From an uncultured Gammaproteobacteria bacterium (lineage in GTDB: Bacteria; Patescibacteriota; Microgenomatia; Curtissbacterales; GWA2-41-24): 64,000 bases of DNA. Below the pieces are notes generated by a model. The model made no database searches. It saw only the letters and a program-made list of their open reading frames with translations, and was not told the DNA's origin. Within the stretch, counting starts at the first letter, position 1, and every line of letters begins with the position of its first letter. Location: the NCBI GenBank assembly GCA_964562855.1, contig CAZLVB010000001.1:3614-67613 (forward strand), written 5' to 3'. The position numbers and the translations under genes were made by a program. Positions 1 to 46,851 of the stretch are shown piece by piece.

Positions 1-845
1 TTATGAATAAAATTGCCGAATTTTAGACCCAAGTCCTGATCCTGCAAAATGAATTTTATTGATTTCTCGATGTCCTCAAGCCGGGGTCTGCCGGTTGTAA
101 CTTCAAAACGCTGTAAGATTACTTTTGGGGGTATCAAAACAACGAGTGGCAGGGCAAGTGTGATAGTTATCAACAAAAAACCGGCCAAATATTTTTTAGG
201 GACAGAGAGAATATCTTTTTTCCAAATAAAAAAAGTAGCAATGAATAAAAGCGGCACAAAAATCCTTTCCGCATGATAGGTATACGCCGATAAAGCCAAA
301 AGAATACCGCTTACGATAAGCAATTTTTTATTTTTCAACCCATACAAAAAGGCGGTGATAGAACTTGCAGCAAAGAAGAGTCCCACAGTTGCTTCAAAGC
401 CAACCCGGGAAAACTGGAGATGCCAGGGGGAGATGGCCAACATTAGCATAGCTACTGTCGGAATATCCAATTTCAAATAATTACCAATTTCAAATTTCAA
501 ATTCGAGTTTTCAAATAGTTTTTTAGCTAAAAGATATAGTACGGGGACGGTCAGAAATCCGAAGATTGCAGATGGAAGCCTAGCGGCAAAAGGTGTCAGC
601 CCAAAAACGGCAACTGAGGGGATATTGAAGTACATGTAAAGTGGGGGTTTATAGTCGTCAAAAGATCTGTTGGTTATGGGTAGGAAGTCGCCGTATTCAT
701 CTTTGCCAGTTTTGAGAATTGAGTAGGCATTATAGGCATTACTGTTTTCGTCCCAATCTAAACTCAAAGGAATTTGTCCTAATTTGTAAAACCGGAGAAT
801 AAATGCTAAAAAAAGAATTGCCAAGAATATTGTTTTTCTACTCAA
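1..845 (-). CDS. GT39/PMT-like GT-C membrane glycosyltransferase paralog; partial, C-terminus lies beyond the window start
   Basis: Hand translation of the minus strand (frame with + coordinates divisible by 3) is open from 845 to 3. N-terminus reads LSRKTIFLAILFLAFILRFYKLGQIPLSLDWDENSNAYNAYSILKTGKDEYG ... LAISPWHLQFSRVGFE, matching the DE-motif N-terminus and ISPWH motif of the other paralogs. Putative TTG start at 843-845 preceded by GAGGAG. Confidence 0.6.
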   Translation of the reverse strand, partial: MSRKTIFLAILFLAFILRFYKLGQIPLSLDWDENSNAYNAYSILKTGKDEYGDFLPITNRSFDDYKPPLYMYFNIPSVAVFGLTPFAARLPSAIFGFLTVPVLYLLAKKLFENSNLKFEIGNYLKLDIPTVAMLMLAISPWHLQFSRVGFEATVGLFFAASSITAFLYGLKNKKLLIVSGILLALSAYTYHAERIFVPLLFIATFFIWKKDILSVPKKYLAGFLLITITLALPLVVLIPPKVILQRFEVTTGRPRLEDIEKSIKFILQDQDLGLKFGNFIH

Positions 846-2556
846 TTTTTTGCTCCTCTAACCTTTTTTTAATCTGGTCAACTTCATACACTTCAAAAAG
901 TCTGTCCCCATTGGGATCATCGACAGTAAAAATTGGCTTGACTTTAAACGATAATTCTTTGGCTTCTGTACCTTCAACCGCCAGCAAGGAGTTGACAGGA
1001 AGGGTTTCGGTACTGGGTGCTGATGGATAAAAGGTAAATTGGCCAATTTTTTCGATTACCTGCCACCCTCCCTGGTCGCGATATCTGACCACTGAGTTTA
1101 GAAAATTTTCGGGATCATATTTTTCGTAAAACAAGTAATGGATATATTGTTTGGCGTCATCCCCTTTTCTCGAAACTGCGATTTCACTATATGCGAACTT
1201 TTTGCTCTCCAAATAATTAAAAAGGTCCTTGTAACCATATCTTTGGTATCTTGCATAAACTTTTGGATAGAAATAAATCATATCTGTCCAAAATCGGGCT
1301 ATGGAGGCTAAAATGACAAGTAGTACGGCAATGCCTAACAACTGTTTTGCCCGTCTATTTTGTATCAGGGCAAAGAGTGTCATTAGACCAAAGGCGGCTA
1401 TAATCTGGGGAATTGGCATCAAGATGTTTAATCTGCCCGGATTACCAACACCCGTTATTGAAGGCCCGATAGGTATAATCAGAATCCAGGCAAGAAGCAG
1501 TAAGGAATTACTATTTTTAAATTTTAAGAGAGAAATTAGCCCGATTATCAAAAGCGGCAGTTCGAAAGTGTAAAAAAAACCTCTTAAGGGTACAGACTGA
1601 TAACCGGTGTAATTACCTTTTATGTAATAAGTTTCAGGCGATAAATTTGAGAAATAATTATTAAGATAAGTGGATAAGAAATAGGTATATTTATTGTATA
1701 TAACTGAGCAGACAAACATTGATAGTCCAGGTTGACATGAACCACGCCGAGAATTAATATCGTCAACTATTCCGCTTCTTTGAACTCCGGCAATAAAACT
1801 TTCCTGGAAAAATCGGGACTGGCCTTTAAAAGTTAATACAGTTGGAATCAGGGGTGTCAGCAGAATAAGAAATAATACTACGTTTCTCGCAAGCGCCGGC
1901 CAGATTGTTCTAAGTTTTCCTCGGTAAAAATAAATCAGCGCGGCAAGAAAAAGAGGCACGAAGAGCCAGCTGGAGCGGTAAATATAAAAACAGAGAGCAA
2001 ATCCAATAAAAGCAAAAGTTAGATATTTGCTATCCTTCAACCCCTTCAAGAAAAAATAGGTAGAGATTACTATAAAGAAAATTAAAATATCGGATTCAAA
2101 TGCATTGCGTGAAGCGACAATGTGCCACGGGGAGATTGCCAACATTAGCGCAGCTAATGTTGGAATTTCCAATTTCCAATTTCCAATTTCCAATAATTTT
2201 TTTAAGTCTTTAAAAAGTTCTTTAGTCAGCAGGTATGTCGCCCAGACAGCCAGAACGCCAAATGCTGCCGACGGGAGTCTTGTAGCGAATTCGTTGACTC
2301 CAAAGAAAAATTGTGAAACTACTGTTAAGTAAAGATATCCGACCAGCTTCCAGTCACCGAAACTTTCGAAAACCGGAAATGGTAAAAATCTCCCCCACTC
2401 GTCTTGGCCGTTTTTAAGAATCGAATAAGCATTGTAACCAAAAGCCGCCTCATCATCGTTAAAGCCGATGGGGATCGTGGTGAGATTTATGAAACGCAAT
2501 AAAACCGCTACCAAAATTATTGCGAGTAAGAAAAAATTGCCCCTGGCCCACTTCAT
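838..2556 (-). CDS. GT39/PMT-like (dolichyl/polyprenyl-phosphate-mannose-protein mannosyltransferase family) polytopic membrane glycosyltransferase
   Basis: 572 aa ORF with N-terminal TM segment followed by a DDEAAFGYNAYSILKNGQDEWG loop-1 DE motif and an ISPWH motif. Paralogous to 4037, 6217, 7809 and 9415. Confidence 0.75.
   Translation of the reverse strand: MKWARGNFFLLAIILVAVLLRFINLTTIPIGFNDDEAAFGYNAYSILKNGQDEWGRFLPFPVFESFGDWKLVGYLYLTVVSQFFFGVNEFATRLPSAAFGVLAVWATYLLTKELFKDLKKLLEIGNWKLEIPTLAALMLAISPWHIVASRNAFESDILIFFIVISTYFFLKGLKDSKYLTFAFIGFALCFYIYRSSWLFVPLFLAALIYFYRGKLRTIWPALARNVVLFLILLTPLIPTVLTFKGQSRFFQESFIAGVQRSGIVDDINSRRGSCQPGLSMFVCSVIYNKYTYFLSTYLNNYFSNLSPETYYIKGNYTGYQSVPLRGFFYTFELPLLIIGLISLLKFKNSNSLLLLAWILIIPIGPSITGVGNPGRLNILMPIPQIIAAFGLMTLFALIQNRRAKQLLGIAVLLVILASIARFWTDMIYFYPKVYARYQRYGYKDLFNYLESKKFAYSEIAVSRKGDDAKQYIHYLFYEKYDPENFLNSVVRYRDQGGWQVIEKIGQFTFYPSAPSTETLPVNSLLAVEGTEAKELSFKVKPIFTVDDPNGDRLFEVYEVDQIKKRLEEQKIE
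2139..2195. repeat. perfect 11-bp inverted repeat (CCAACATTAGC-GCA-GCTAATGTTGG, 2139-2163) followed by 4 perfect copies of heptanucleotide TTCCAAT (2168-2195), inside the CDS of GT39 paralog 838..2556
   Basis: Read directly from the sequence. The same palindrome is present at 10668-10692 in paralog 9415..11109; a degenerate copy is at 436-460. The repeat region translates in frame to LEIGNWKLEIPTLAALMLA. Confidence 0.8.
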
Positions 2557-4040
2557 GGTATTACCTGGTACAATCTCATGTAGCTATTCCCTACTCCTTT
2601 TTGGAATTTAACAACAAATTTTAAATTTCGATTTGTAATCTCTTTTTGATTCTCGTTAAAAACAAAGTACGTTTTATTAATTTGCGCCTGCTCTAGTGCC
2701 TGTTGAGAAAGTTTATTTGTATCTACCGGCCAAAAGCCGGTGATTTGTACGTTGTGATTACCGAAAAAATAAATCAGAAGGGCATACGGCAGTAGCCCAA
2801 AAGTACCTTCGGTTCCAACGTAAATCTGTTTATCTTTTGATTCGTTACGAATGATTTCAACGACCTCGTTAACTCCGTATCCCGCCGGCCAATCATTTAG
2901 ATACTGGCCCTTATCACTGTCGGCAATTCTTGCCTTTGTAGGGCTAGTCAGGAGAAAGTATGACGAAGAAAGAGGTAATATCAAAAACAAAGCAAAAATG
3001 GCTACGAATGATTTTTTAAATTGAGGAATTCGATCTAAAAAACTAATTACTCCGTGCGACAAAATAATTATTAAAAACGGAAAATAAAAAAGAAGAAACC
3101 TTGGGTAAATTACTTTATTGAAAACGGCCATCGCCAAAAACGGTATCAAAAATAAAAAAGATAAATAAATTATTCTTTTGTTCATTTTGTAGATTCCCCA
3201 AATAGCAGAAATTATAAAGATTAAGAACAGGGGCCATGTAATATAAGACGCAATCCATGTAGAAAGAGTAAAAAGGTTTGATTTAAAGAAAATGAGAGGA
3301 TCTTTTGCCACTTCTGAAAAAGGCCTGATAAATTCCAAGTTTTTGCGACCAATAATGTAAAACAGCGGGGAAAGTCTTAAACTGTTGTACATAAGTTGGG
3401 TTAAAACCACAGAAATGGCAGAAAGCCCAAGCCATTTTAAAAATTTGACATTCCGATTTTTTGCCGTGAAATCAAAAAGCAATAAAGAGAGCGGCAGAAA
3501 ATACAGAAAAAATACCCCAGACGATTTAGTAATCATTGCTAAGCCAATGGCAAAACCTGAAAATATAGATGTATCAAGACGTGGATTTTTGATGAGTTTA
3601 ACTGCAAACAAAATACTCAATATTCCAAACATTGTCAGCAACGAATCAAAAAGGGCCATACGATCGTAGAGTAAAGTGAATGGTAAGATTACATATAGAA
3701 GCGCCGAAAGTTTAGCAACTTTATCTGAAAACAGTTCTCTCGTTAGAAAATAAATTGCGACGACTGAGCCAAAACCGGCCATGACTGAGACTGCTCTTGT
3801 GGCAATTAAAGGATCATTTATAAAATTTTGAAAAATAGCGGCAAGCCAAATAAATAACGGTTGTTTGCCGTCTTCTAGAGAAATAAACCGGTGGGCTGGA
3901 TCGTGAAGAGCGACTTGGGCCCAATAGCTGTAAATTGCCTCGTCGGTGAATATCGGAATAATCTTTAGGTTGATGATTCTTGTCAGAAAATAGACTAAAA
4001 CTAAAAGAGGCCAGAAGAAAAATTCGAATTTGTTTTTCAT
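2553..4040 (-). CDS. ArnT/PMT_2-like GT-C membrane glycosyltransferase
   Basis: 495 aa polytopic ORF with an FTDEAIYSYWAQV motif resembling the ArnT DE(A/T)xY(A/S) loop motif. Overlaps both neighbours by 4 nt. Confidence 0.6.
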   Translation of the reverse strand: MKNKFEFFFWPLLVLVYFLTRIINLKIIPIFTDEAIYSYWAQVALHDPAHRFISLEDGKQPLFIWLAAIFQNFINDPLIATRAVSVMAGFGSVVAIYFLTRELFSDKVAKLSALLYVILPFTLLYDRMALFDSLLTMFGILSILFAVKLIKNPRLDTSIFSGFAIGLAMITKSSGVFFLYFLPLSLLLFDFTAKNRNVKFLKWLGLSAISVVLTQLMYNSLRLSPLFYIIGRKNLEFIRPFSEVAKDPLIFFKSNLFTLSTWIASYITWPLFLIFIISAIWGIYKMNKRIIYLSFLFLIPFLAMAVFNKVIYPRFLLFYFPFLIIILSHGVISFLDRIPQFKKSFVAIFALFLILPLSSSYFLLTSPTKARIADSDKGQYLNDWPAGYGVNEVVEIIRNESKDKQIYVGTEGTFGLLPYALLIYFFGNHNVQITGFWPVDTNKLSQQALEQAQINKTYFVFNENQKEITNRNLKFVVKFQKGVGNSYMRLYQVIP

Positions 4041-5650
4041 CGTGAAGAGATTCCTATATCGAAAACCCGTTGGCCTTCTAAATTGCTGACGGAATCGACT
4101 TTTTGAGCATCGGGAGGCAGTTGTTCCGGACTTGCAATAAAAAGCGCCTTGCCGGTAAGGGTAATATTGCCAAGACTATCACTGAATCTGTATTTATCAA
4201 AAGCCTCTACATCCAAAAAGTAAAATTTGTCTCTTTCGGTCTGGGACGTTTGCCAATAAAGTTTTGGTTCGTACTTAGTATAAAAAAGGAAATAAATATA
4301 TGGCCTTCCTTGGGCTTTTGTGACTACTATTTGATCGACTTGATCGTAATATTTTTGGGAAGCTTCAACAACCTGTTTGTAGCCGTATTGCCAGGAGCCT
4401 GAATAATTTAGAGGCCAGTGAATGTAATACATATGCAAGTAATAGAAAAAGTTGAGAGCCAATAATAAAAACGTTGCAATAAAAAAGATTTTTTTGAATT
4501 TGATTAGTTGATAAAGATAATATGCTCCAAAGGCGGCGATTAGTTGAAACGTTGGCAGAATATGGACCATTCTCAGTGCGTGCGGAGTTTCTCGAGCAGT
4601 GGCAGGACCAAGAGGTGAAACTAGCATCCAGCCAATGATTAACCACCGATACTGATGTTTTTTGGAAAATAAGAAATAAATGCCCGCCAATATTAATGGC
4701 AGATCGACAAGATAAAGTTCGCCAACTTCCTGGATTGAAAGTCTTGGATTAACATCTCCGCGAAAAAATAGGAAACTTGGGTTAAAAGCATCTAAATAAT
4801 GTTTTAAGTATTCTTGTGCATAAAATAAGCGCCGGTTGTGAATTAAATTGGACCACAAGGAATAGTTATCACGTACTTGATATCTTCTTGATTCGTCTAT
4901 GGGTTTTAAATCCCTAAAAATCGTGACTTCATTAAACCTAAGTTTGCCTTCGATAGTAATGGTTGCGAATTTAAATAGTGGCCAAAAAAGAAAAAGTGCT
5001 ACGATTGCGGTCGCAGTAACTAACTTGAGATTCGCCATAATTTGTTTTCTAAATTGCAGAAATAATATAGCCAAAATAAACGGCACAAAGAGCCTCTGGC
5101 CGGTGAACGTGTAGATTGCAGCTAAGAAGGAGAGTGCAGAAAAAAATAAGTAATATGATTTACCGGTCGCGAATTTTAAAAATAGATAGATCCCCAGTGT
5201 TGAAAAAAACAGGCCTAAATTTGCTTCAAAAGCCCCTCTTGAGAACTGTAAGTGCCAAGGGGAAATTGTTAAAAATAAAGCTGCAAGAAGCGAGATAACT
5301 TCTCTCTTAAAAAGTATTTTGGAAATTAAATAAACTAAAATAACAGTCAAAACTCCAAAAAAAGCAGAAGGGAATCTAATTGAGAATTCGTTTAGACCAA
5401 ATAAGGCCACTGACGGTACAGTTGTATAAATATAGCCTGGAGGCTTGTAATCACCAAAAGCTGCAAAATTAGTCAGTGGCATAAATTTACCGTGTTCATC
5501 ATGGCCAGTTTTAAGTATTGAATAAGCGTTGTAACCCAAAGAGGCCTCATCCCAATAAAGCGAGGGCGGGACAGATGAGAGTTTATAAAGTCTTAAAAAT
5601 AAGGCTAGCAGAACAATAGATATTAAGAGAACATTATTTAAATTTTTCAT
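4037..5650 (-). CDS. GT39/PMT-like membrane glycosyltransferase paralog
   Basis: 537 aa; YWDEASLGYNAYSILKTGHDEHGKFMPL and ISPWHLQFSRGAFE motifs. Confidence 0.75.
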   Translation of the reverse strand: MKNLNNVLLISIVLLALFLRLYKLSSVPPSLYWDEASLGYNAYSILKTGHDEHGKFMPLTNFAAFGDYKPPGYIYTTVPSVALFGLNEFSIRFPSAFFGVLTVILVYLISKILFKREVISLLAALFLTISPWHLQFSRGAFEANLGLFFSTLGIYLFLKFATGKSYYLFFSALSFLAAIYTFTGQRLFVPFILAILFLQFRKQIMANLKLVTATAIVALFLFWPLFKFATITIEGKLRFNEVTIFRDLKPIDESRRYQVRDNYSLWSNLIHNRRLFYAQEYLKHYLDAFNPSFLFFRGDVNPRLSIQEVGELYLVDLPLILAGIYFLFSKKHQYRWLIIGWMLVSPLGPATARETPHALRMVHILPTFQLIAAFGAYYLYQLIKFKKIFFIATFLLLALNFFYYLHMYYIHWPLNYSGSWQYGYKQVVEASQKYYDQVDQIVVTKAQGRPYIYFLFYTKYEPKLYWQTSQTERDKFYFLDVEAFDKYRFSDSLGNITLTGKALFIASPEQLPPDAQKVDSVSNLEGQRVFDIGISSR

Positions 5651-5654: not shown

Positions 5655-6230
5655 CTAATTAAAAAAGATATTATTACATACCGACTTTAATTGCCAATTG
5701 AAGATGAAGTACCAGATAGTTAAGTAGCTTAGGGCAACTAAAATAAATATTGACTGGGCCGATTTGGCAAGTCGCCCGATCCCCCATAGAGAAAACGTGT
5801 ATCTTGACAAGGCTAACAAATAAAACTCCAGTTTGGATGAAGAAGCAATAATTGCGTATAACGGTACAGCTAGGAATGTCAAAAAATGGACTAGAGACCA
5901 AAAACGTTTTTTTCTGGTAATTTCAACTATTCCTAAGATCAGTAGTACAACACCAACTGGCCCGACGGTTTCGAATAACAACTTAGGGGTAAAAGTGGAT
6001 AAATACGATTTGCCAAATTCGTAGAGGCCGGCACTTGCTTTATTATGAAAAAAACGGGCGACGGTTCTTTCTATATCTGTATCTGTAGCCGTTTGTGATT
6101 CGACATTAATTTTTACTGAAAGCGGGATAAAGCTATAATCGATAAATTGCTTACAACCGGTGGTTTGCCACATTCTAAAAGCATAAACTGAAACTATTAG
6201 TAAAATTAAAACTAATTTAATTTTTGCCAT
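5655..6230 (-). CDS. hypothetical membrane protein
   Basis: 191 aa ORF with an N-terminal hydrophobic segment and about four predicted TM helices. It sits between two GT39 paralogs. No recognisable family. Confidence 0.4.
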   Translation of the reverse strand: MAKIKLVLILLIVSVYAFRMWQTTGCKQFIDYSFIPLSVKINVESQTATDTDIERTVARFFHNKASAGLYEFGKSYLSTFTPKLLFETVGPVGVVLLILGIVEITRKKRFWSLVHFLTFLAVPLYAIIASSSKLEFYLLALSRYTFSLWGIGRLAKSAQSIFILVALSYLTIWYFIFNWQLKSVCNNIFFN

Positions 6231-33146: not shown

Positions 33147-34081
33147 TGAACTACCTCCTTTAGTCCAGTTTCAAATTTTACTTCCGGTTGCCAGTTTATC
33201 ATCTTTTTTATTTTAGTAATATCCGGTACTCGTCTTTTGATATCGAACTGGAATCCTCTTACATATTTAACTCTAAGTGATTTTTTAATACCCATAATTC
33301 TCCACAGCAGTTTTGCCAGATAGATCATTTTTATTTCCTCATCACTACCTATGTTGAAGGTTTGATTTTCCCCTTTGTCGCTAAGAGCAACCTGGATAAC
33401 GCCATTTGCGATATCTGAAACATGAGTAAAGCATCTAGTCTGCTGGCCATCTCCCAGGAGTTCCAATGGGTACTGTCCGTTAAGAATTTTGCGCACTAAA
33501 TCCGGTATGACATGAGCATAGCCGACCTCTCTTTCCGGAAATTCGTTTATGCCATACGCATTAAATGGTCTGCATATCGAATAAGGCAATTTGTATTGAT
33601 CCCAAAAGGCATGGCAATACCATTCGCCTATCAACTTCGAAAAACCATATGACGTTACTGGCGGTGGAATTCTTTTGATATCATCCTCTTTCGAGGGAAA
33701 AGATTTGGTCGACTCGAAAACCATGGACGACGAAATATAAACTATTCTTTTGACTTTACTTTTGGCCGCTGCCTCGAAAGTGGAACTGTAAATTTTGTTG
33801 TTTTCAGAAAGAATAGTTGCCGGATATTTATGAAAATAACCGATTCCGCCTATTTTGGCGGCTGCGTTTATAACTATATCTATACCTTTAAAGATCTCAG
33901 AAGTGTTATTAGTATTTGTCAGGTCGACTTTTTTAAAATCCGCCCGCTTGTCAACAGAAGCGTCTTTCTTGGAAAGATCATCAGCAATTCTGACATAGAA
34001 ATTGCGCTCTAGAAGTTGTTTGACTATCTCGCTTCCGATAAAGCCGGCGCCTCCTGTAACCATAAATTTAATTTTGTTCAT
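33110..34081 (-). CDS. NAD-dependent sugar epimerase/dehydratase (SDR family)
   Basis: 323 aa; MVTGGAGFIGSEIV Rossmann motif; YxxxK present in YGFSKLIGE. Confidence 0.65.
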   Translation of the reverse strand: MNKIKFMVTGGAGFIGSEIVKQLLERNFYVRIADDLSKKDASVDKRADFKKVDLTNTNNTSEIFKGIDIVINAAAKIGGIGYFHKYPATILSENNKIYSSTFEAAAKSKVKRIVYISSSMVFESTKSFPSKEDDIKRIPPPVTSYGFSKLIGEWYCHAFWDQYKLPYSICRPFNAYGINEFPEREVGYAHVIPDLVRKILNGQYPLELLGDGQQTRCFTHVSDIANGVIQVALSDKGENQTFNIGSDEEIKMIYLAKLLWRIMGIKKSLRVKYVRGFQFDIKRRVPDITKIKKMINWQPEVKFETGLKEVVHWLKTQKEQGKI

Positions 34082-39381: not shown

Positions 39382-39402
39382 AAAACAAGCTTTCTTATTT
39401 TA

Positions 39403-40887
39403 CTATTTTAGAACCTTGATCAACACGTAGTCTTGATGCTCGGCTATAAGTTCATACCTATTTTTCTCAATATTATCCAAGTTGAGTCTCCAGCCTTCAG
39501 TTAATAATAAAAAAGGTTTTTTCCCAAAAGATATAATACCCTTAAGACTGTTTCTTGGAAACGGCTCACCTTGTACATGATAAACTTTTTTCTGTGAATA
39601 AAAGACAGCACCCGGCAGGAAAAATTCATTGTCAAGATATAAGGTTTCTGGCCGCATCCTTGCTGCCGTTGCGGTATACGCTAAACCACTTGTTGATTTA
39701 TCAAAAAGTTTAATCTCGTCTCTAAATTCGTAAATTTGCTTAAGTGATAAAGCCAAAATTAAGCAAATAGTAACTGCAGAAGCGATCGCTGTTTTATTTT
39801 TACGGATAAAAATAACGAATTTTTTAGGCAAAAAGTTTTTATTTAGAGTAACAACTTTTAGGGAGTAAAAAAGTATTTGATAAAGTGAGAATGCAATAAA
39901 AATCCCAAGTATAGGATAAAGGGGGATTAGATGCCAAATTTCTGTTTTTGAATTTGTTAAAAAACCGAATATAAGGATTAAAAACCAAATGTATAGCACA
40001 AAAAGTATCGGGGTTTTAAATAGAAATGCTACTGATCCGACAAGAGCAATTAGGGCGGGATAAAACCATTCTAGAATTCCATAATGCAGATAGACAAAGG
40101 TCAAAGAAGAACCAATCTCTTCAAAATTTGGTTTCACCTTAAACTCTGGTCTTAATCCAACATTTATCAAGTGATTTAAAAAATTCAAGCCGTAAACTTT
40201 GATATTTATAACTAGCCATGGGGCTAAAATTAATGAAAATAAAAAAACCCCTATTAAGGTTCTTTTAATTGGGGCTGATTTATTTTTAATAAACGTAAAG
40301 ATTAATATAATAAGAATCGGAGGTAAAATAGTCAGCCCAATGACTGACTTAGTTAGCAACGAAAAGGCAAAAGATATCGCAAACGGATAGACCCAGTTTA
40401 AGTTGTTTCTTATCTTAACGGCACAATAAAAGGTAAATAAATAAAAAAAGATAAAAACAGTATCTAAATTACCAGATCTTGCCCTTAAGATAAACCAGAC
40501 GGAGGAAAGTAACATTAAAGCCGCACCCATTCCAATGATCCGGTTAAAGAGGTTTTTACCAATAAGATACAAAGTTATAACCGAACCAAATCCCGCCAAT
40601 GCTGAGGGAAAGCGGGCAGCAAAATCTGTCACCCCAAATACTAAAAATGAGATTGCCATTAGCAAAAATGCCAAAGGCGGATGATCTATATATGGTGATT
40701 CGTTAAAATAAAGAATCAGGGGCTGGTAACTTGTTAAAATATTCCTTGCTATCTCTGCGTACCAGGCTTCATCGAAATCAACCAGGCTTGTCGCACCAAG
40801 ATTGTAAAAAAATAAAGGCGAAAAAACCAGAATGGTTATAATGGCGAAAATATCACTTTTGTATTTTTTAAGAAAATTTCTAACCAT
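39403..40887 (-). CDS. ArnT-like (GT83/PMT_2) polyprenyl-phosphate-dependent glycosyltransferase
   Basis: 494 aa; LVDFDEAWYAEIARN is a near-canonical ArnT DExRYAEI motif. Confidence 0.65.
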   Translation of the reverse strand: MVRNFLKKYKSDIFAIITILVFSPLFFYNLGATSLVDFDEAWYAEIARNILTSYQPLILYFNESPYIDHPPLAFLLMAISFLVFGVTDFAARFPSALAGFGSVITLYLIGKNLFNRIIGMGAALMLLSSVWFILRARSGNLDTVFIFFYLFTFYCAVKIRNNLNWVYPFAISFAFSLLTKSVIGLTILPPILIILIFTFIKNKSAPIKRTLIGVFLFSLILAPWLVINIKVYGLNFLNHLINVGLRPEFKVKPNFEEIGSSLTFVYLHYGILEWFYPALIALVGSVAFLFKTPILFVLYIWFLILIFGFLTNSKTEIWHLIPLYPILGIFIAFSLYQILFYSLKVVTLNKNFLPKKFVIFIRKNKTAIASAVTICLILALSLKQIYEFRDEIKLFDKSTSGLAYTATAARMRPETLYLDNEFFLPGAVFYSQKKVYHVQGEPFPRNSLKGIISFGKKPFLLLTEGWRLNLDNIEKNRYELIAEHQDYVLIKVLK

Positions 40888-42311
40888 TAATTAACTTGGT
40901 GAATTTTGACAATTTTAATAAAATGGTCGAATCCAATAGAAACTGTTTTTGCGGGGAAACTTCTTTCGTACTTTATTTTTAAATAATAAGATGGTTCATC
41001 AAATCCAAAAACGTATAAGTTTCCACCCCCCTCTTGTGGCCCCTTCCCCAAGGCTTTGAACAAAAAGGGGTAACCGTTATTAATTGCAAGTGGCAAGCTG
41101 TAATGTACATTAAATGTGTCTTGGGCGGAATCACGGATAACATAGGTGACCGCTTCTTTTTTAATTCTGTAGTTGATTACACTTTTATAATTTATATTAC
41201 TTTTAATATTCATGAATAAAAAAAATGTAATAAATATTAAAAAGATAAGAAAATTTTTTCTGATTACAAAAGAAATAATAATGATAAATGGTAATAAGGA
41301 TTGTAGGAGGTAATAATCTGGAATATGTCCCTTGTAAAACAAGAATCCAAAAACTGGCAAGAATAACCATACAGGAAAAATAAAAAATAGGTTGTTTTTT
41401 TTCTTGAGTAGAAAATAGGTTCCTAATACAACAAGGCACAGAATGAATATCAGGAAAATAGTATTTGCAGATTGAAAAAGATAATTGGCAAAAAACGGCA
41501 GATTTATATTTCTAACAAGATAAATTGATTTATTGAAATAATTTTGAGAACCTGCGTTCTGGCTTATGAATTTTAGAAAATTTTCCCAAAGAATATTATC
41601 GTGCCTAAAATTAAAAATAATTAACGGAAGAAAGTTTAGTAAAAAAGCAGCAACTGCAAGTACAAAATAGAAATAATTTTTCCTTTCTCTTAAGAAAGCC
41701 GTTAAAATAAATGCGACGGCAGAAAAAATGAAAACCGGGTTAAAATTTACGGTAGCAATCCCCGCTATGAAAGCCCCTATTATCAAAAAAATACTTTTCC
41801 TCCTGAAATATTGATAAATCGAGTACATAAGTCCAATTGACGAAAGAAATAAGAAATAATTACTGTTGACTCCCCACTCATACGAAATTTGAGCAAAGGA
41901 TACTGAATAAATAATGGTAGAAATAAGAGCAGTCTTTGCGTCGAAAATGCTTCTTATCACAATATATAGAATTGGAATAGTGATAGTTCCTAAAATGGCG
42001 TAAAAATAAGGAACGCAATCCGGCAGAAGACTGCAAAACTTGTAGGGGATGAATTGAATCCAATTATGCAAAGGTCCAAGGTAAAATCCTTTGAAAGAAA
42101 GCTCTTGCCCTATAAGAGTTACCTTGTGATTTACAAAAAAGTCATATGCGGAATTTGCGGCATACTCCTGATCAAAATCGAAAGGGAATCCCTCACGAAT
42201 TTTGTAAAATCGCAAGAGTGCACCAGCTAAAATAACAAGTAAAAGCGGAATTGCGCCAACGTATCTATTTATAGATGCCCCGAAGGTCATTAAGGCGAAC
42301 TTTGACAACAT
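40887..42311 (-). CDS. polytopic membrane protein, putative GT-C-type (family C paralog)
   Basis: 474 aa; FDFDQEYAANSAYDF...TLIGQELSFKGFYLGPLHNW motif as in 22587..24083 and 44044..45663. Confidence 0.45.
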   Translation of the reverse strand: MLSKFALMTFGASINRYVGAIPLLLVILAGALLRFYKIREGFPFDFDQEYAANSAYDFFVNHKVTLIGQELSFKGFYLGPLHNWIQFIPYKFCSLLPDCVPYFYAILGTITIPILYIVIRSIFDAKTALISTIIYSVSFAQISYEWGVNSNYFLFLSSIGLMYSIYQYFRRKSIFLIIGAFIAGIATVNFNPVFIFSAVAFILTAFLRERKNYFYFVLAVAAFLLNFLPLIIFNFRHDNILWENFLKFISQNAGSQNYFNKSIYLVRNINLPFFANYLFQSANTIFLIFILCLVVLGTYFLLKKKNNLFFIFPVWLFLPVFGFLFYKGHIPDYYLLQSLLPFIIIISFVIRKNFLIFLIFITFFLFMNIKSNINYKSVINYRIKKEAVTYVIRDSAQDTFNVHYSLPLAINNGYPFLFKALGKGPQEGGGNLYVFGFDEPSYYLKIKYERSFPAKTVSIGFDHFIKIVKIHQVN

Positions 42312-43020
42312 CTCTCAGCATTCTTAAAGAGTCTTTTATTGGGCTAACCCTGGTGGTGGCAACATGATGCCAGATAATTGGTACTTCTTTGATTTTATAC
42401 CCGTGTTTTTTAGCAATGAATAATAATTCGACATCGAATGCCGTGACGAGTGCCCCCTTAATTCTCTTCCCCTTGCCATAAACCTTAAGTTTTCCAAATA
42501 ATTCCTTCGCAACATTACTCTTGAAACATTTGAATCCTGCCTGAGTATCCCAAATTCCCCTGACTGCAATAAATTGCACTACAAGATTAAAGACAAGCCC
42601 CATTAAGTGCCTATAAAACGGCTCCTTCTCCCTCTTTGCGCCAGGCAGTTGCCTTGAACCTATGACGATATCGTATTCGGGAAAATGAGGCAAGAGTTTT
42701 TCAATCTCTGAAATCGGTGTGGCTTGGTCAAAGTCGGTAAAAAGAACAAATTCTCCTTTTGCAGCGAGTACTCCAGTTTTGACAGTTTCGGCCTTACCTT
42801 GGTGAGGATTTTTAATTAAACGAAAGTTTTTGTATTTTTTGACAAATTTTTCTGCCAATTGCGAAGTTTTATCCTCAGAACCATCATCAATTATTATTGC
42901 TTCATAAGAATAATTCTGTTGATCAAGATACTGCGGAACTTGCGCCAGAAGCCCTTTTTCAAAATTTGGCTCTTCGTTATAGGCGGGAATAACAACAGAA
43001 AGGAAGATTTTGTCTGGCAT
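42265..43020 (-). CDS. GT2 polyprenyl-phosphate sugar synthase-like glycosyltransferase
   Basis: LSVVIPAYNEEPNF...IIIDDGSEDKT...FTDFDQ motifs; 251 aa. Confidence 0.7.
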   Translation of the reverse strand: MPDKIFLSVVIPAYNEEPNFEKGLLAQVPQYLDQQNYSYEAIIIDDGSEDKTSQLAEKFVKKYKNFRLIKNPHQGKAETVKTGVLAAKGEFVLFTDFDQATPISEIEKLLPHFPEYDIVIGSRQLPGAKREKEPFYRHLMGLVFNLVVQFIAVRGIWDTQAGFKCFKSNVAKELFGKLKVYGKGKRIKGALVTAFDVELLFIAKKHGYKIKEVPIIWHHVATTRVSPIKDSLRMLRDVVKVRLNDLRGIYK

Positions 43021-43117: not shown

Positions 43118-44026
43118 CTATGCGTTGTCAAAAAGCATTTTTAGAAGTGCCATTCTGACGAAGACTCCGTTATGAGCTTGTTCGAAATAAAGGGCTCTGG
43201 GATCCGAATCTACTTCTTGGCTTATTTCATCAACGCGCGGTAGAGGGTGAAGTATTAACGCGGTTTTTTTAATATATTTTAGAGCTTTTTTGTCTAAAAT
43301 ATATTTACCTGAATATTTTTTGTAATCTTCGCCTAAGTATTCTTTAGGGATTCTAGTTTGATAAATTACGTCTGCTTTCTTAATTGCTTCTAAGTAATCT
43401 TCGGTTTCGGAAAATCGAACTTTTTTGGCGCTAAAATATTTTCTGAAATCGGTTGGGATACGTAAAGATTTCGGTGAAACGAAAATAATATTGACACTCG
43501 GATAATTTGCCAATAAATAGGAAAGAGAATGCACAGACCTGTAAACGGACAGTGCTCCTGCCATAGCTATGGTAAACCTGGGATTTTTGACTTTGGAAAA
43601 GATAGTGTATAGATCCAGCAACGCTTGAGTCGGATGCTCTCCGCCTCCGTCGCCCGCATTAATGACTGGCACGGTAGAATAGCTAGCCGCCAAGCGGGCC
43701 GAACCGATTTTTGGATGCCTAATTACTATAACATCGCAATAATCATCTACGATCCTTATGGTATCCTCGAGAGTTTCTCCTTTAATCGCTGATGAGAATT
43801 CCTTAGCGTTTTCTGTTGATATAGTTGACCCGCCTAATTTGATCATTGCCGATTCGAAAGAAAATCTAGTCCTGGTTGATGGTTCGTAAAAAAGCGTGGC
43901 CATTATTTTTTTGTTTAGAAAATTCTGATTGTATTTCCCATTCTGGATTTCGTCTGCAATTTTAAAAAGCTTAGTCACCGTATCTTTATCAAATTGCTGT
44001 GCCGAAATTATGTGTTTAATTCTCAT
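43118..44026 (-). CDS. pyrB: aspartate carbamoyltransferase catalytic subunit
   Basis: 302 aa; STRTRFSFESAM carbamoyl-phosphate binding motif and HPLPRVDEI aspartate-domain motif. Confidence 0.85.
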   Translation of the reverse strand: MRIKHIISAQQFDKDTVTKLFKIADEIQNGKYNQNFLNKKIMATLFYEPSTRTRFSFESAMIKLGGSTISTENAKEFSSAIKGETLEDTIRIVDDYCDVIVIRHPKIGSARLAASYSTVPVINAGDGGGEHPTQALLDLYTIFSKVKNPRFTIAMAGALSVYRSVHSLSYLLANYPSVNIIFVSPKSLRIPTDFRKYFSAKKVRFSETEDYLEAIKKADVIYQTRIPKEYLGEDYKKYSGKYILDKKALKYIKKTALILHPLPRVDEISQEVDSDPRALYFEQAHNGVFVRMALLKMLFDNA

Positions 44027-44043: not shown

Positions 44044-45663
44044 TTATCCACCTTTAACTGCCGGTTTCCCAGCGGGATTGGGTGCCCCTGGCCAGTGAGT
44101 AAGCTTAAAAACCTTAATGCCGATTTCGGGTAAGTCCCATTCACCGACTATTTGCGCTCTTCCGAACCCGGCAATTTCCCAAATGGGATGTCCAAGTGGC
44201 GCACATGTTCTAGTTTCACAAACTACCAAAAGTTGCTCCGTTACTAATGTTTCAAGCTCGGTTGGACGAAATCCTTTTATTTCTAGAAAATACCTATATG
44301 CATGATCGCTATTGTGATCGGCAATCAGCGCAAAATTAAAAGGCTTATCTTCGCTTATTTTTGTCACAAAACCGGAAACGGTTGATGTTTGTTCAATTAA
44401 TCTATTTGGAGGGTATCTAAAAAGACCATTTGAAACAAAATATGCAACTGTTATGGCAGTTAAAATAAATGTAAAACTTCTAAAAAAAATGTTCTTCCAG
44501 AAAACACTAATAACTAAACCAAATAACAGAAAGGGTGCGGGGAACATAAATCCGAAGTAGTAATCAAAAAGCTGGCCAGCATAAAGCCTCGCACCCAGTA
44601 AGCCCCCCAAAAACCAGATGATACCTATGGAAAAAATTAGTTTTTTCTCACTAAATTTCCAATTTTTGGCCAGTCCATATATTCCTCCAACTGCCAAAAA
44701 CCAGTAAAATATCTTCGTGATAATTGTTTTATTGAGCTCTGATATGAATTCCAATAAGATATTACCGGTATTTGAGGCTTGCCAAACCAAATTTATCCTT
44801 TTGTAGCCAACAGTTGATCCCCGAGTTATAAATTCCCAGATTGTTTTAAAGTTAGGAAAATTATTTTTAATTTCGAACAATAAAAATGGCAAAACGGTGA
44901 CAATTGCTCCCGCTAACCCAGCAGCAAGATAAATGGGCCATTTTTTAAAACTAACATTAAAAAACAACACTAAGGTTGAAAGTAAAAATAAAACTGTTGC
45001 TAAATAGTGAAGCTGGATAGCGATGCCAAAGCACGCACCGGCAAGAAGAAAATAGATGACTTTTTTCTTTTGGATGCCTTTATAGAGAAAATAGAATAAG
45101 AGAAGCGCAAAAAATGGTAATGGGTTGGGATTCCAGGAAGATCTTGAATACCTAACAATAAGCGGGGCTGTTGCGTATAAAAAGCCGGCAAGAATTGCCG
45201 GCCAATAGCCCGCAGTTTCTGCAAGAAACTTAAAAAGTAAGAGCACGGTTAAGGCGCCAAATGCCGCCACCATGTATGAGGGTCCTACCGGGTCATATCG
45301 CCATAAATATAAGAATGGTGCGCCCATCCAATAATAAATTGGGCCAAGGTAGAAACCGCCTACAGAGGCAGTTGGACCTAAAAACGTTGGCCTTTTTTCC
45401 ATTATCATCTTTCTCATAACTAGCATATCTCTCCCCTCGTCTCCCAAAAAAACAACATAATCTCTAACCTTCCAAAATCGGAAGAACATGGCAGTTAAAA
45501 TTAAAATCAAAAAAATAATGAATTTTATTTTCGAATCCGCGAAACCACTGCTTCCCGCTCGGGGATGAAGTGGATGAGAAAACATCCTCCAAAGTCGACT
45601 GGTAAGTGAAGATGTCATATTTTTAAATTTTCCAAACTTCATGGGATGCTCCCTGGATTGCAA
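44044..45663 (-). CDS. polytopic membrane protein, putative GT-C-type (family C paralog)
   Basis: 539 aa; FLGDEGRDMLVMRKMIMEKRPTFLGPTASVGGFYLGPIYYW. Confidence 0.45.
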   Translation of the reverse strand: MQSREHPMKFGKFKNMTSSLTSRLWRMFSHPLHPRAGSSGFADSKIKFIIFLILILTAMFFRFWKVRDYVVFLGDEGRDMLVMRKMIMEKRPTFLGPTASVGGFYLGPIYYWMGAPFLYLWRYDPVGPSYMVAAFGALTVLLLFKFLAETAGYWPAILAGFLYATAPLIVRYSRSSWNPNPLPFFALLLFYFLYKGIQKKKVIYFLLAGACFGIAIQLHYLATVLFLLSTLVLFFNVSFKKWPIYLAAGLAGAIVTVLPFLLFEIKNNFPNFKTIWEFITRGSTVGYKRINLVWQASNTGNILLEFISELNKTIITKIFYWFLAVGGIYGLAKNWKFSEKKLIFSIGIIWFLGGLLGARLYAGQLFDYYFGFMFPAPFLLFGLVISVFWKNIFFRSFTFILTAITVAYFVSNGLFRYPPNRLIEQTSTVSGFVTKISEDKPFNFALIADHNSDHAYRYFLEIKGFRPTELETLVTEQLLVVCETRTCAPLGHPIWEIAGFGRAQIVGEWDLPEIGIKVFKLTHWPGAPNPAGKPAVKGG

Positions 45664-46851
45664 TTAAGATTCTTTCCAGATCAGCAGCGTATTTAAAAGA
45701 TAGTTTGCGAATAATCCGATAATTACTCCTACTGCCAAGCCGATTTGCTCATGAAGAGAAAGAACTCTGGCAAAAAATAAGATAGAAGTGAGCTGAATTA
45801 GTGGGCTGGCAAAGGATGTCGCATTAAATTTAAGAAACCTTAAAAAAATGGAGCCGTCGCGCGAACGATGTTTAAATGTCCAATTATCGTGAAACAGAAA
45901 GTTCAAAATTATAGATAGCTCGATAGAAACTATTGACGAAACTAAAAGCCTATCAAGAGTAACTGAAAATACTTTAGGTGCATGCTCGAAGCTGGGAATA
46001 AAGCTGAATAGAGGTTTTGCCAGTATTGGCAAGAAATAAATCTCTCCCCTGTTGAAAATTCCCAGCGTTATAGCATTTGTTAAATAACTTGCCACACCGA
46101 CTGTCAAAAATTTAAAGAAGGTTCTTGAACGTTCAATTCTAACCCTAATGCCAAATTTCAAAACATCCAAGGTGTAGGCAATAATTTTGGCTTTTGAATA
46201 GCCCCTTTTGCGGTCTTCGAAAGTTATAGGTATTTCTTTAATCTTTGCGCCAGCTTTGATAGCAGCATATAAAAAAGCCGGTTGAATTATGTAAGTTTTA
46301 GCCCTCCATGGAACTTTTGAAAAATCGATTTTTTCGAATAATGTTTTAGTAAAAACTCTGTAGGAATTTGTATATTCAGATAAATTAAACGTACCCCAAC
46401 TAAATTTACAATAGAGAGCAGAACCCCTTGTAAAGAGTCTCCTGTGCCATCCCAGTCGATTCTTACCACCTTTTGTGAGCCTTGAACCGTTTACTAAATC
46501 GAAACCTTTTTTTATGTATTCAACCATTTTAGGTAGCGATGCTGGGTCATGTGACAGGTCTCCATCCATTTGAGCAAGTACATCGGCTTTGAGTCTGTCA
46601 ATTGAATAACGATGTCCCTTGACGATGCCTACACCCAACCCTTTTTGTTTCACATCCAGGTAGTGCACTTTTGGATTTATTTTGGAGATTCTTTTTACAG
46701 TTTCTGCAGTACCGTCAAGAGAGTGACTGTCAGAAACTAAAACGTGCAGATCGAAATCCGGCAGTAATTTGGAAGCTTGGAGAATTTTTTTTATTACTTC
46801 TTCTATATTCTCTCCCTCGTTATAGGTAGGGACATTGACCACAAGTCTCAT
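45664..46851 (-). CDS. GT2 polyprenyl-phosphate glycosyltransferase fused to a C-terminal GtrA-like membrane domain
   Basis: 395 aa; the N-terminal 230 aa form a GT2 body ([13 protein letters not shown]...DGDLSHD); the C-terminal about 130 aa contain four TM helices of GtrA type ([20 protein letters not shown]). Confidence 0.65.

Follow-up and report, generated by a model that had tools for sequence, protein, structure and literature searches.

A glycosylation island dense in GT-C-type membrane glycosyltransferases in a Candidatus Curtissbacteria relative

We analysed a 64-kb stretch of DNA (hereafter the window) from an uncultured, ultra-small Candidatus Curtissbacteria relative (Microgenomates, CPR). 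Positions 3–46851 hold an island of 36 genes which, at ~47 kb, takes up some 5% of a genome of ~1 Mb. All of these genes lie on the minus strand except g10, hence the array is co-directional as proposed in an initial annotation of this DNA, save for this one gene. Neighbouring genes mostly overlap or are separated by <50 bp, which suggests an operon structure, read from gene spacing only as a promoter/terminator scan was uninformative. Polytopic GT-C-type proteins, recognised by Pfam, hhalign and paralogy, make up 20 of the 36 genes and fall into roughly nine subfamilies, in agreement with the ~20 first counted but not with the claim that almost every gene is of this type. Family and fold assignments point to GT-C enzymes and not transporters. 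The island is syntenic across several independent Curtissbacteria assemblies (53–85% amino-acid identity; loci labelled L003 and so on below), and single GT-C genes have been gained or lost among the relatives' islands, so that it is both conserved and variable; g06 is missing in L003 and L013, and g30 in L011.

PMT_2/PMT matches that reached the Pfam cut-off (26.1 bits for PMT_2) were found for g01, g02, g03, g05, g06, g07, g23, g30, g31 and g34, with g02, g03, g05 and g30 passing the PMT (PF02366) cut-off. The proteins g18 (24.7 bits) and g22 (25.1 bits) fell slightly under the PMT_2 threshold, each having a paralogue or orthologue above it. Every complete GT-C protein carries an acidic residue within ~20 residues past the first transmembrane helix. 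The seven genes reported to bear a loop-1 DE motif were recovered as g01, g02, g03, g05, g06, g07 and g30, and g34 has GDE at this position.

Family A consists of GT39/PMT_2-like proteins: g01 (838–2556; loop-1 DDE, PMT_2 39.2 bits), which shares 32–34% identity with the others, g03 (4037–5650; PMT 58 bits, the top PMT match of the window, PMT_2 49.2 bits), g05 (6217–7818; PMT_2 41.4, PMT 38.2 bits), g06 (7809–9452; PMT_2 31.1 bits) and g07 (9415–11109; PMT_2 42 bits). A sixth member, g00 (3–845), is cut by the left window edge, its N-terminal 280 aa containing a loop-1 WDE and an SPWHLQFSR motif. The PMT_2/PMT protein g02 (2553–4040; loop-1 TDE, PMT_2 61, PMT 39.3 bits) is distant kin of this family (hhalign 96%). 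Between g03 and g05, g04 (5655–6230) encodes a 191-aa membrane protein with four transmembrane helices and no Pfam match, which aligned to family-A residues 241–368 (hhalign E 5.5e-6). This alignment makes it a stand-alone homologue of the mid-section of family-A proteins, possibly an accessory subunit, and it is kept in L003 and L013 at 43–44% identity.

The remaining GT-C genes include the three unnamed paralogue families of the initial annotation, here B, D and E, and its two YfhO-like genes. Family B, which aligned to YfhO with 99% probability (hhalign), contains g27 (34100–35710; PTPS_related 29.9 bits, above the cut-off) and its 28–32% paralogues g08 (11096–12814; loop-1 HD, 32% identity with g27), a PTPS_related/YfhO-related protein whose L003 orthologue also matched PTPS_related (30.7 bits; PMT_2 E 9e-4), and g21 (26484–28226; 28–29% identity with g08 and g27, also linked by hhalign). 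Family D, related to family A with 98% probability (hhalign), comprises g18 (22587–24083; L003 orthologue PMT_2 41.3 bits), g31 (40887–42311; PMT_2 28.2 bits) and g34 (44044–45663; PMT_2 42.4 bits). Family E is the pair g22 (28201–29634; loop-1 QDD, 28% identity with g23) and g23 (29635–31137; PMT_2 31.2 bits). The YfhO family is represented by g13 (16894–19221; 775 aa, 77.4 bits) and g28 (35780–38194; 804 aa, 88.4 bits), next to which lie an MptA/MptB-family-like protein of 396 aa, g29 (38191–39381), and the PMT_2/PMT protein g30 (39403–40887; loop-1 FDE, PMT_2 70.7, PMT 46.5 bits). Finally, g10 (13950–15209, plus strand) encodes a GT-C-fold protein of 409–419 aa.

Nine GT2 genes are present, as first counted, interleaved with the GT-C genes where they are synthases. 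However, only five of the nine are of the DPM1/GtrB/ArnC type expected of polyprenyl-phosphate-sugar synthases. A profile built from these five matched Pyrococcus furiosus DPMS (5mlz) over its full length (2.5e-41), GtrB (2.5e-26) and ArnC (1e-22), whereas their NCBIfam matches all lie far under the equivalog cut-offs and sugar specificity is not readable from sequence. They are g11 (15199–16020; top NCBIfam matches AglJ, PpgS and Dol-P-hexose transferase), g24 (31055–31852; PgfS, then weaker Dol-P-hexose transferase and PpgS), g32 (42265–43020; NCBIfam and the five-gene profile), g35 (45664–46851) and, at the right window edge, g53 (63254–63937, minus strand; Glycos_transf_2 130.7, AglJ 111, ArnC 71 bits). 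The PgfS match of g24 (72.9 bits against a 500-bit cut-off) is a resemblance and not an assignment. In g35 the Glycos_transf_2 domain is joined to an integral four-helix GtrA/DPMS transmembrane domain (GtrA_DPMS_TM), both domains aligning to 5mlz (E 4.9e-32). This is the catalytic-plus-transmembrane architecture of the P. furiosus enzyme and bears out the reported GtrA fusion; a separate GtrA, also claimed, was not found in the window. The other four GT2 proteins differ. Both g12 (15956–16915; Glyco_tranf_2_3, with MftF, EpsD and rhamnosyltransferase models, PDB top chondroitin synthase and ppGalNAcT) and the rhamnosyltransferase-like g17 (21691–22587; TIGR01556 66 bits, under the cut-off, and PDB matches) are ordinary cytoplasmic Leloir enzymes, while g16 (20924–21694) and g19 (24134–25036), 35% identical, form a subgroup whose profile resembled GmaR (4.3e-25) and ThuS/SunS (1e-12 to 1e-10). 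GmaR and SunS are protein glycosyltransferases.

The GT4 (GT-B) enzyme, methyltransferase and flippase reported earlier were all recovered, as a cytoplasmic glycosyltransferase g14 (19202–20251; Glycos_transf_1 86.8 bits), a SAM-dependent methyltransferase g15 (20248–20958; Methyltransf_11 23.5 bits) and a Wzx/MOP-family protein g20 (25033–26508; Polysacc_synt_3 178 bits). Sugar-nucleotide genes occur inside the island, namely a UDP-ManNAc-dehydrogenase-like 6-dehydrogenase g25 (31818–33146; TIGR03026 322 bits) and an NAD-dependent epimerase/dehydratase g26 (33110–34081; Epimerase 176.8 bits). The island is also flanked by such genes, in a minus-strand supply block g36–g43 (46848–54468) ordered as GMD, a GMD-paralogue reductase/dehydratase, UDP-Glc dehydrogenase, RmlD-like, RmlB, RmlA-like, an EEP-family protein and GalE, and by the undecaprenyl-diphosphatase g51 (UppP/BacA; 61711–62487, minus strand; BacA 249 bits), predicted to recycle the lipid carrier. 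Donor-sugar genes are therefore present as described, except that RmlC was not found within the 64-kb window, leaving the dTDP-L-rhamnose pathway incomplete there. Two other genes are embedded in the island, a dihydroorotase-like amidohydrolase g09 (12840–13907; Amidohydro_1, NCBIfam dihydroorotase models at 1e-79, slightly under cut-offs), whose position is kept in L003, L005 and L013, and a pyrB-like aspartate carbamoyltransferase g33 (43118–44026; OTCace_N 160, OTCace 97 bits), conserved in L011. About 10 kb off, g45 (56295–57191) encodes a surface protein whose linker is rich in Pro, Thr and Ser.

The synthases head co-directional runs of one to ~10 GT-C genes, with open reading frames overlapping or abutting from g35 to g34, from g32 through g31–g27, and from g26/g25 through g24 to g23–g21, g24 being placed immediately downstream of the sugar-nucleotide genes. 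Furthermore, g11 adjoins g10 and lies upstream of g08–g00. In L003 and L011–L014 these synthase/GT-C adjacencies are kept with intact reading frames. Family and fold assignments, gene order and conservation among relatives are direct observations, and with five synthases for 20 transferases and synthase-headed runs, it is most likely that the GT-C enzymes draw on a small set of shared donors, whether one after another or in parallel.

We consider it likely, from these sequence features, that the island is the main cell-surface glycoconjugate locus, in which a few shared lipid-linked donors feed many GT-C enzymes to build a glycan in multiple steps. The donors, order of action, acceptor and flipping route we infer as follows. 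Cytoplasmic enzymes would supply GDP-6-deoxyhexose, dTDP-6-deoxyhexose, UDP-GlcA, UDP-Gal/GalNAc-type and N-acetyl-hexosaminuronic-type sugars; g11, g24, g32, g35 and g53 would load single sugars onto polyprenyl phosphate, for flipping either by g20, the Wzx protein, or through the GtrA/DPMS transmembrane domain that g35 carries. At the membrane's outer face the ~20 GT-C enzymes would pass these sugars to growing acceptors, giving a branched complex glycan, a lipoglycan or a protein-linked glycan. A cytoplasmic sub-module (g14, g12, g16, g17, g19, g15 and g20) is probably responsible for a lipid-linked primer or repeat unit, which would be elaborated once it has been flipped. Oligosaccharyltransferases and ligases draw on polyprenyl-diphosphate-oligosaccharide donors, and some of the GT-C enzymes could use these instead of monophosphate sugars. 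It also counts against this scheme that neither an acceptor nor an initiating phosphoglycosyltransferase, Wzy, LCP-type ligase or separate GtrA was found in the window.

Protein glycosylation by comparable enzymes occurs in Actinobacteria (Ppm1/Pmt) and streptococci (PgfS/PgfM, GtrB/PgtC2). It is possible, though we think it unlikely, that the island serves mainly protein O-glycosylation, with the GT39/PMT-like family A, and the YfhO proteins too perhaps, adding lipid-linked sugars to Ser/Thr-rich regions in proteins that are secreted or displayed at the surface, for example pilins, S-layer or PT-linker proteins like g45. The PMT matches, the PMT-type loop-1 DE of family A and the GmaR/SunS likeness of g16 and g19 are in keeping with this, as are the top NCBIfam matches of g24 and g35 to PgfS, a streptococcal protein-glycosylation GT2, yet at 61–73 against 500 bits. 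A YfhO enzyme also glycosylates membrane proteins in S. pyogenes (PMC12041528). However, PMT_2 and YfhO membership leaves the acceptor unfixed, enzymes of both families also acting on lipid A, LPS core, LTA, WTA and rhamnan (PMC8035078), and MIR and PMT_4TMC domains were not detected among the island genes. Adding single sugars to proteins would need less than 20 transferases of nine subfamilies together with Wzx, GT4 and Leloir GT2 enzymes. This explanation overlaps with a multi-step surface glycan, and may cover part of the island.

The initial annotation instead saw roughly ten GT2/GT-C pairs, each adding one sugar as a single decoration in a possibly combinatorial system. Known systems do come as pairs, such as CsbB/YfhO and Csd in Lactococcus (PMC8035078), GT-C content differs among related genomes, and four synthases directly adjoin a GT-C gene (g35/g34, g32/g31, g24/g23 and g11/g10). 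We find independent pairs improbable, however, since five synthases leave 15 or more of the GT-C enzymes without a partner of their own, and g08–g00 form at least nine successive GT-C genes without a GT2.

Another improbable reading is a locus for a conventional Wzx/Wzy-dependent heteropolysaccharide (capsule- or O-antigen-like), its repeat unit assembled cytoplasmically and most of the polytopic proteins being polymerases or ligases instead of transferases that add sugars. The grouping of Wzx, GT4, methyltransferase and the four non-synthase GT2 genes at 15.9–26.5 kb fits this, as does the lower GC of some stretches of the island, which is typical of polysaccharide loci. The protein g10 has a marginal likeness to EpsG (E 0.7), and PF14897 was hit by a few of its homologues, but its model resembles ALG12, Pmt4 and ArnT-type GT-C proteins and not WaaL or SEDS-type proteins. 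Wzy, Wzz and an initiating phosphoglycosyltransferase are absent from the window, and a pure Wzx/Wzy pathway has no use for five DPMS-type synthases, making it a doubtful account. That the island is redundant, decaying amplification debris with little present function, as tandem paralogy, the fragment-like g04 and paralogues absent from relatives might suggest, is very improbable given intact, full-length reading frames, retained loop-1 acidic residues, the conservation of g04, and tandem paralogues at 28–37% identity against orthologues at 53–70% with length kept, from which the duplications are old and every copy has been maintained.

The sharing of few lipid-linked donors by many GT-C enzymes has its closest precedents in mycobacterial LM/LAM/AG synthesis, in RgtE with RgtA-D and in the ER enzymes ALG3/9/12/6/8/10, so the principle is not undescribed, contrary to what had been proposed. 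By analogy, the island would be nearer to mycobacterial LM/LAM synthesis (PimE/MptA-C/Emb/Aft), or to the luminal ALG steps that finish the N-glycan precursor, than to ten pairs. LM and LAM are made by a GT-C array using Ppm1-derived PPM (PMC3485146; PMC3123699), and multi-component transmembrane glycosylation systems are already known (PMC8035078; PMC11127046). Our literature search found no paper on such an island in CPR bacteria, and its density, in line with the initial annotation, clearly exceeds the range of one to three GT-A/GT-C pairs in a genome that has been reviewed for Gram-positive bacteria (PMC8035078). The original observation is thus partly confirmed and its interpretation partly supported: the chemistry is known, and it is the density of lipid-sugar-dependent membrane transferases that is unusual and so far undescribed.

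The window encodes 53 ORFs of at least 150 aa and one gene truncated at the left edge of its 64 kb (g00-g53, numbered left to right), with all genes except g10 (13950-15209, plus strand) on the minus strand. Adjacent genes mostly overlap or are separated by gaps of less than 50 bp, hence the organisation is operon-like. Pfam scans, run on every ORF in the window, placed 20 polytopic GT-C glycosyltransferase candidates and a small related membrane protein (g04) in the island at 3-46851, together with eight GT2 glycosyltransferases, a GT4 enzyme (g14), a methyltransferase (g15), a Wzx/MOP flippase (g20), two nucleotide-sugar enzymes (g25 and g26) and two pyrimidine-pathway genes (pyrC-like g09 and pyrB-like g33). 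The ninth GT2, g53, lies at 63254-63937. A nucleotide-sugar block occupies 46848-54468, and to the right of this are housekeeping envelope and division genes, including UppP. Here, at 54468-55960, two small minus-strand ORFs of 106 aa and 147 aa adjoin the Sua5/YrdC gene g44, the longer of which carries a GDLGAGKT P-loop and overlaps the g44 start by 35 nt; they resemble, and may be, the t6A partners TsaB and TsaE.

GC content drops to 0.32–0.36 in parts of 20000-32000 and 36000-42000, against 0.39–0.41 in the housekeeping region to the right, as is usual for surface-polysaccharide loci. The window contains no tRNA genes, hence nothing obvious to mark the integration site of a mobile island, and no other mobility signature was found there. 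A promoter/terminator scan of the window gave no difference from shuffled sequence. Phase variation via simple repeats is unsupported, with only four 9-nt A/T runs, one C7 and one (AT)5.

The identity of the large membrane proteins as GT-C enzymes, rather than transporters or unrelated families, was borne out by Pfam matches, links between families and loop-1 acidic residues. Ten proteins (g01, g02, g03, g05, g06, g07, g23, g30, g31 and g34) passed the PMT_2 or PMT gathering score; g18 and g22 fell approximately 1 bit under the PMT_2 score, each having a paralogue or orthologue above it. The YfhO profile (PF09586, cut-off 28.5 bits) matched g13 (77.4 bits) and g28 (88.4 bits), proteins of ~800 aa, and PTPS_related was passed by g27 and by the orthologue of g08 in a related Curtissbacteria contig (L003), with g08 and g21 being their paralogues. 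BLASTP grouped the proteins into family A (g00, g01, g03, g05, g06, g07; 32–37% pairwise identity among complete members, the truncated g00 being placed by motifs), family B (g08, g21, g27; 28–32%), the YfhO family (g13, g28; 31%), family D (g18, g31, g34; 24–27%), family E (g22, g23; 28%) and the singletons g02, g10, g29 and g30. Profile–profile comparison connected most of these groups (B–YfhO 99%, A–D 98%, A–g30 97%, A–g02 96%, B–D 91%, D–E 83%, A–g10 82%).

Every complete GT-C protein possesses an acidic residue soon after TM1, as expected of a GT-C-fold transferase. The loop-1 motif is DE in family A (including the partial g00, the column being invariant across the family alignment), g02 and g30, GDE in g34, HD in family B, DD in family E and D in the YfhO proteins. 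Structure models were made for g29 and g10, the two proteins without a Pfam match. The g29 model has a GT-C fold with PimE and AftB among its matches, the g10 model is a GT-C resembling ALG12, PMT and ArnT enzymes, and the top structural matches of both were ALG3, ALG6, ALG12 and GPI-MT1. Although g29 itself had no match in the Pfam copy used, precomputed annotations place PF26314 (MptA_B_family) on 120 of 120 homologues among the matches listed (57–100% identical), and UniRef names these homologues ‘RgtA/B/C/D-like’. Sequence searches of the PDB with the family-A and family-B profiles returned no match, hence GT-C membership rests on Pfam, hhalign and fold comparison; the assignments of family B and g04 draw on sequence and profile comparison.

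The initial annotation had treated all nine GT2 genes as polyprenyl-phosphate-sugar synthases, which proved too broad. A profile of five of them (g11, g24, g32, g35 and g53) matched the Pyrococcus dolichol-phosphate-mannose synthase (DPMS) 5mlz over its full length (2.5e-41), followed by GtrB (5ekp) and ArnC, with invariant PxYNE, DDxSxDxT and DxD-type columns. Their best NCBIfam matches were AglJ, PpgS, Dol-P-hexose transferase and PgfS, all far under the equivalog cut-offs. The annotated GT2–GtrA fusion was confirmed as g35, whose alignment with DPMS takes in the catalytic domain as well as the four-helix TM domain, hence the ‘GtrA fusion’ is the known DPMS architecture. A GtrA_DPMS_TM domain (56 bits, aligned to the DPMS TM domain) occurs in g35 only, and no free-standing GtrA was found among window ORFs of at least 50 aa; the window also has one Wzx, g20 (Polysacc_synt_3, 178 bits), as a candidate flippase. 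The remaining GT2 genes are of other kinds: g12 and g17 are ordinary Leloir enzymes, while g16 (20924-21694) and g19 (24134-25036) are paralogues sharing 35% identity, whose nearest solved relatives are protein and peptide glycosyltransferases: the flagellin O-GlcNAc transferase GmaR of Listeria (4e-25) and then the S-glycosyltransferases ThuS and SunS. This hints at possible cytoplasmic protein glycosylation beside the lipid-linked route.

Sugar-nucleotide supply is encoded mainly in the 46848-54468 block, which contains GMD above its equivalog cut-off followed by a GMD paralogue (g37), UDP-glucose dehydrogenase, RmlB (496 against a cut-off of 365), RmlA-like (234 against 360) and RmlD-like (173 against 224) proteins, and GalE above its cut-off. 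The paralogue g37 matched no equivalog model and could be an RMD-type reductase. The dTDP-rhamnose donor genes of the initial annotation were thus recovered in part, with RmlB secure, the RmlA-like and RmlD-like genes present below their cut-offs, and no RmlC ORF in the window, where the RmlABCD set is therefore incomplete. As RmlC is missing and RmlB alone exceeds its equivalog cut-off, either the pathway may end in a dTDP-6-deoxyhexose that is not L-rhamnose, or an RmlC gene may lie outside the window. The dihydroorotase-like g09 (12840-13907) and the aspartate carbamoyltransferase g33 (43118-44026) both lie inside the island, positions kept across four related contigs (L003, L005, L011 and L013), which is odd for a CPR genome; one possibility is that they are tied to UMP/UDP-sugar supply.

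Roughly ten GT2/GT-C pairs had been proposed for the locus, whereas the layout is one of five donors for 20 transferases with a synthase heading each run. In the direction of transcription, g35 precedes g34, g32 precedes g31, g30, g29, g28 and g27, and the sugar-nucleotide genes g26 and g25 precede g24, itself followed by g23, g22 and g21. The fourth synthase gene of the island, g11, adjoins the divergent g10, with g08 through g00 downstream. The central block g20-g12, with its Wzx flippase, non-synthase GT2s, GT4 and methyltransferase, resembles a cytoplasmic module for making a primer or repeat unit. The reading with most support is that of a surface-glycoconjugate locus, in which sugars would be carried by lipid phosphate and transferred by GT-C enzymes outside the membrane; the donors, acceptor, order of action and route of flipping are putative. 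Such a mechanism would follow the logic by which multi-component transmembrane glycosylation systems work (PMC8035078; PMC11127046). The 1:4 donor to transferase ratio, like the length of the GT-C runs, suggests that the glycan is assembled and branched step by step, by analogy with mycobacterial lipomannan and lipoarabinomannan (LM/LAM), RgtE with RgtA-D, and the ALG series of the ER.

Among the family-A genes lies g04 (5655-6230, minus strand), whose 191-aa product has four TM helices and matched nothing in Pfam. It is homologous to family-A residues ~241–368, comprising a periplasmic loop and the helices that follow (hhalign E 5.5e-6), and is kept at the same place between family-A genes in two relatives (L003:21460-22035 and L013:4374-4958, 43–44% identity). 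Judged from these alignments, g04 may be a split-off accessory subunit. A GtrA-like flippase was ruled out, as g04 matches the middle of family A, and the 192-aa ORFs beside GT39-like genes in more distant MAGs (L007-L009) are pentapeptide-repeat proteins with no homology to it.

The closest genome match was Candidatus Curtissbacteria RIFCSPLOWO2_02_41_11 (Patescibacteria group, Microgenomates group, Candidatus Curtissiibacteriota). Whether the island is conserved or variable had been a question of the initial annotation, and comparison with five Curtissbacteria relatives (L003 and L011-L014) revealed a conserved gene order and a variable GT-C complement. L003 is collinear with g21 to g04 at 55–84% amino acid identity for most genes, with lower values for g04 (43%) and the g18 counterpart (38%), and collinearity with the Rifle groundwater contigs L011-L014 takes in g37-g23 and g01-g18 (53–85%). 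Differences between genomes are single GT-C genes: g06 is absent from L003, g06, g07 and g08 are absent from L013, and L011 is without g30, having instead two additional family-D-like proteins along with a methyltransferase and a GIY-YIG gene. The length of g18 also differs, with 498 aa in the window (22587-24083) compared with 1011 aa in L003 (3603-6638) and more than 837 aa in L013 (18708-21221), the window copy having no C-terminal extension of ~500 aa.

Orthologues share 53–70% identity and are far less diverged than paralogues (28–37%), which indicates that the array is old and each copy maintained, and not the result of recent amplification or decay. A smaller module of GT4, YfhO, g12-like GT2 and family-A-like genes occurs in the more distant MAGs L006-L009. 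Its YfhO protein is ~880 aa (32% identity to g13), the GT2 is 45–46% identical to g12 and the family-A-like GT-C proteins 33–35%, with two of these genes each in L007-L009 and an incomplete copy where the L006 contig ends; in L007-L009 the module is followed by a pentapeptide-repeat protein. These records are titled ‘uncultured Gammaproteobacteria’ or ‘bacterium MDV bin63’, TPA taxon labels that seem untrustworthy; one of the contigs is 1.57 Mb long. CPR genomes are typically ~1 Mb and contigs of the relatives reach 0.98 Mb, hence the island would make up roughly 5% of the genome.

The closest parallels in part types are the three-component systems GtrA/GtrB/GtrC, CsbB/GtcA/YfhO, GacI-L and Lactococcus CsdAB/CD/EF with CflA (PMC8035078; PMC11127046), in which a GT2 loads undecaprenyl phosphate, a GtrA or Wzx flippase is present and a PMT_2 or YfhO GT-C transfers the sugar outside. 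All of these part types are predicted in the island, the flippase as a candidate. However, the island differs in placing five synthases and 20 GT-Cs in one co-directional locus, at 1:4 rather than 1:1, and in lacking a free-standing GtrA. LM/LAM and arabinogalactan of mycobacteria and corynebacteria offer a second parallel: as outlined in PMC3485146 and PMC3123699, an array of GT-C enzymes builds LM/LAM from Ppm1-derived PPM, the donors PPM and DPA being used by PimE, MptA, MptB, MptC/D, EmbA-C and AftA-D. Many GT-Cs acting stepwise outside the membrane on few polyprenyl-phosphate donors to give a branched glycan is the proposed likeness on the island side, and g29 falls in the MptA_B family. 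However, phylum and envelope are not the same, most island enzymes belong to PMT_2, YfhO and PTPS_related and not to Emb, Aft or GT87, and clustering of the genes is far tighter; genes of a PI-anchor or DPA pathway were not seen in the window.

In ArnC/ArnT and in RgtE with RgtA-D, one GT2-made polyprenyl-phosphate sugar serves as donor for a single PMT_2-type GT-C (ArnT) or for four (RgtA-D). The synthase profile has ArnC among its best PDB matches, and g26-g25-g24-g23-g22 (epimerase, dehydrogenase, GT2 and two GT-C genes) resembles the logic of ArnC and Rhizobium RgtE. The acceptors must differ from the lipid A and core of ArnT and Rgt, LPS not being expected in a monoderm-like CPR bacterium. 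ER-luminal N-glycan and GPI assembly (ALG3, 9, 12, 6, 8, 10; PIG-M/V/B/Z; Dpm1/Alg5) similarly feeds two lipid-phosphate donors to a series of GT-Cs forming one linkage each, but this likeness is structural and logical only (8–14% sequence identity), and the window yielded no OST/STT3 homologue.

Protein O-glycosylation is a credible alternative for part of the island, and one that could coexist with the main reading. The locus shares PMT/PMT_2 domains with a loop-1 DE motif, a YfhO member and DPMS/PgfS-like synthases with Ppm1/Dpm1 plus PMT (GT39), PgfS/PgfM1/2 and GtrB/PgtC2 (PMC12041528). PMT itself (PF02366, cut-off 22.7 bits) matched g02 (39.3 bits), g03 (58), g05 (38.2) and g30 (46.5), with g01 below cut-off (19.5) and g06, g07 and others matching PMT_2 only. 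Furthermore, S. pyogenes has a YfhO enzyme that glycosylates membrane proteins, and in S. mutans adhesins are substrates of PgfS/PgfM1 (PMC12041528), and the GmaR/SunS-like g16 and g19 fit the same alternative, as does a surface protein with a PT-rich linker, g45 (56295-57191, minus strand), near the island. This protein has no Pfam match and comprises a signal peptide, an N-terminal domain of ~150 aa, a Pro/Thr/Ser-rich linker (residues 179–208, PTPSPSPTPAPTSTNQTSSTKSPTPTPKPS) and a C-terminal TM anchor; such linkers are of the kind O-glycosylated by PMT-type enzymes, making g45 a candidate acceptor. Against this, the eukaryotic and actinobacterial PMT architecture is not found in the island, no protein having a Pfam match at E <= 0.01 to MIR (loop 5) or the C-terminal PMT_4TMC, and family A is six tandem paralogues rather than a single enzyme. 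A Wzx/Wzy-dependent pathway is represented by its Wzx component (g20), but Wzy_C, O-ag_pol, Wzz, Bac_transf and Glycos_transf_4 matched no window ORF, and an initiating phosphoglycosyltransferase, Wzy, Wzz and ligase are absent from the window, although such genes could lie elsewhere in the genome.

The surface-glycoconjugate reading involves known chemistry and no new mechanism. Gram-positive genomes covered by a review carry one to three GT-A/GT-C pairs each (PMC8035078), compared with which the island is a variation on known chemistry with a quantitatively striking number of GT-C genes, and it is relevant to episymbiont surfaces. Its genes have been in public MAGs since 2015-16 under generic annotation, and our literature search on GT-C arrays in CPR, Patescibacteria or Curtissbacteria found no paper describing them. 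Multiple ‘dolichol-phosphate mannosyltransferase’ copies are remarked on in passing for Peregrinibacteria and one Saccharibacterium, a 2024 preprint on Saccharibacteria pili calls glycosylation ‘unexplored’ (PMC11623550), and a 2024 PNAS perspective on CPR/Patescibacteria does not mention glycans. A bolder scenario, which we regard as tentative and rather less than probable, is that the main surface glycoconjugate of Curtissbacteria, and perhaps of many Microgenomates, is made almost wholly outside the membrane, on an assembly line of ~20 GT-Cs using five lipid-phosphate sugars. Such a line would be the bacterial equivalent of ER-luminal assembly and of LAM synthesis, on a scale unmatched elsewhere, in which the species-variable GT-C set would provide a glycan ‘identity’ for host attachment or phage evasion and g04-type fragments would serve as accessory subunits.

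Almost nothing is known of the cell-surface chemistry of CPR/Patescibacteria. The island provides concrete targets for heterologous assays and for metaproteomics and glycomics of groundwater enrichments, and its approximately nine GT-C subfamilies with candidate donors form a compact natural library for work on GT-C specificity and glycoengineering. That a lineage with genomes on the ~1-Mb scale keeps ~47 kb of lipid-linked-sugar transferases, conserved between species though with a variable GT-C set, probably reflects heavy investment in a surface glycan, which would be the interface of an episymbiont with its hosts and phages.
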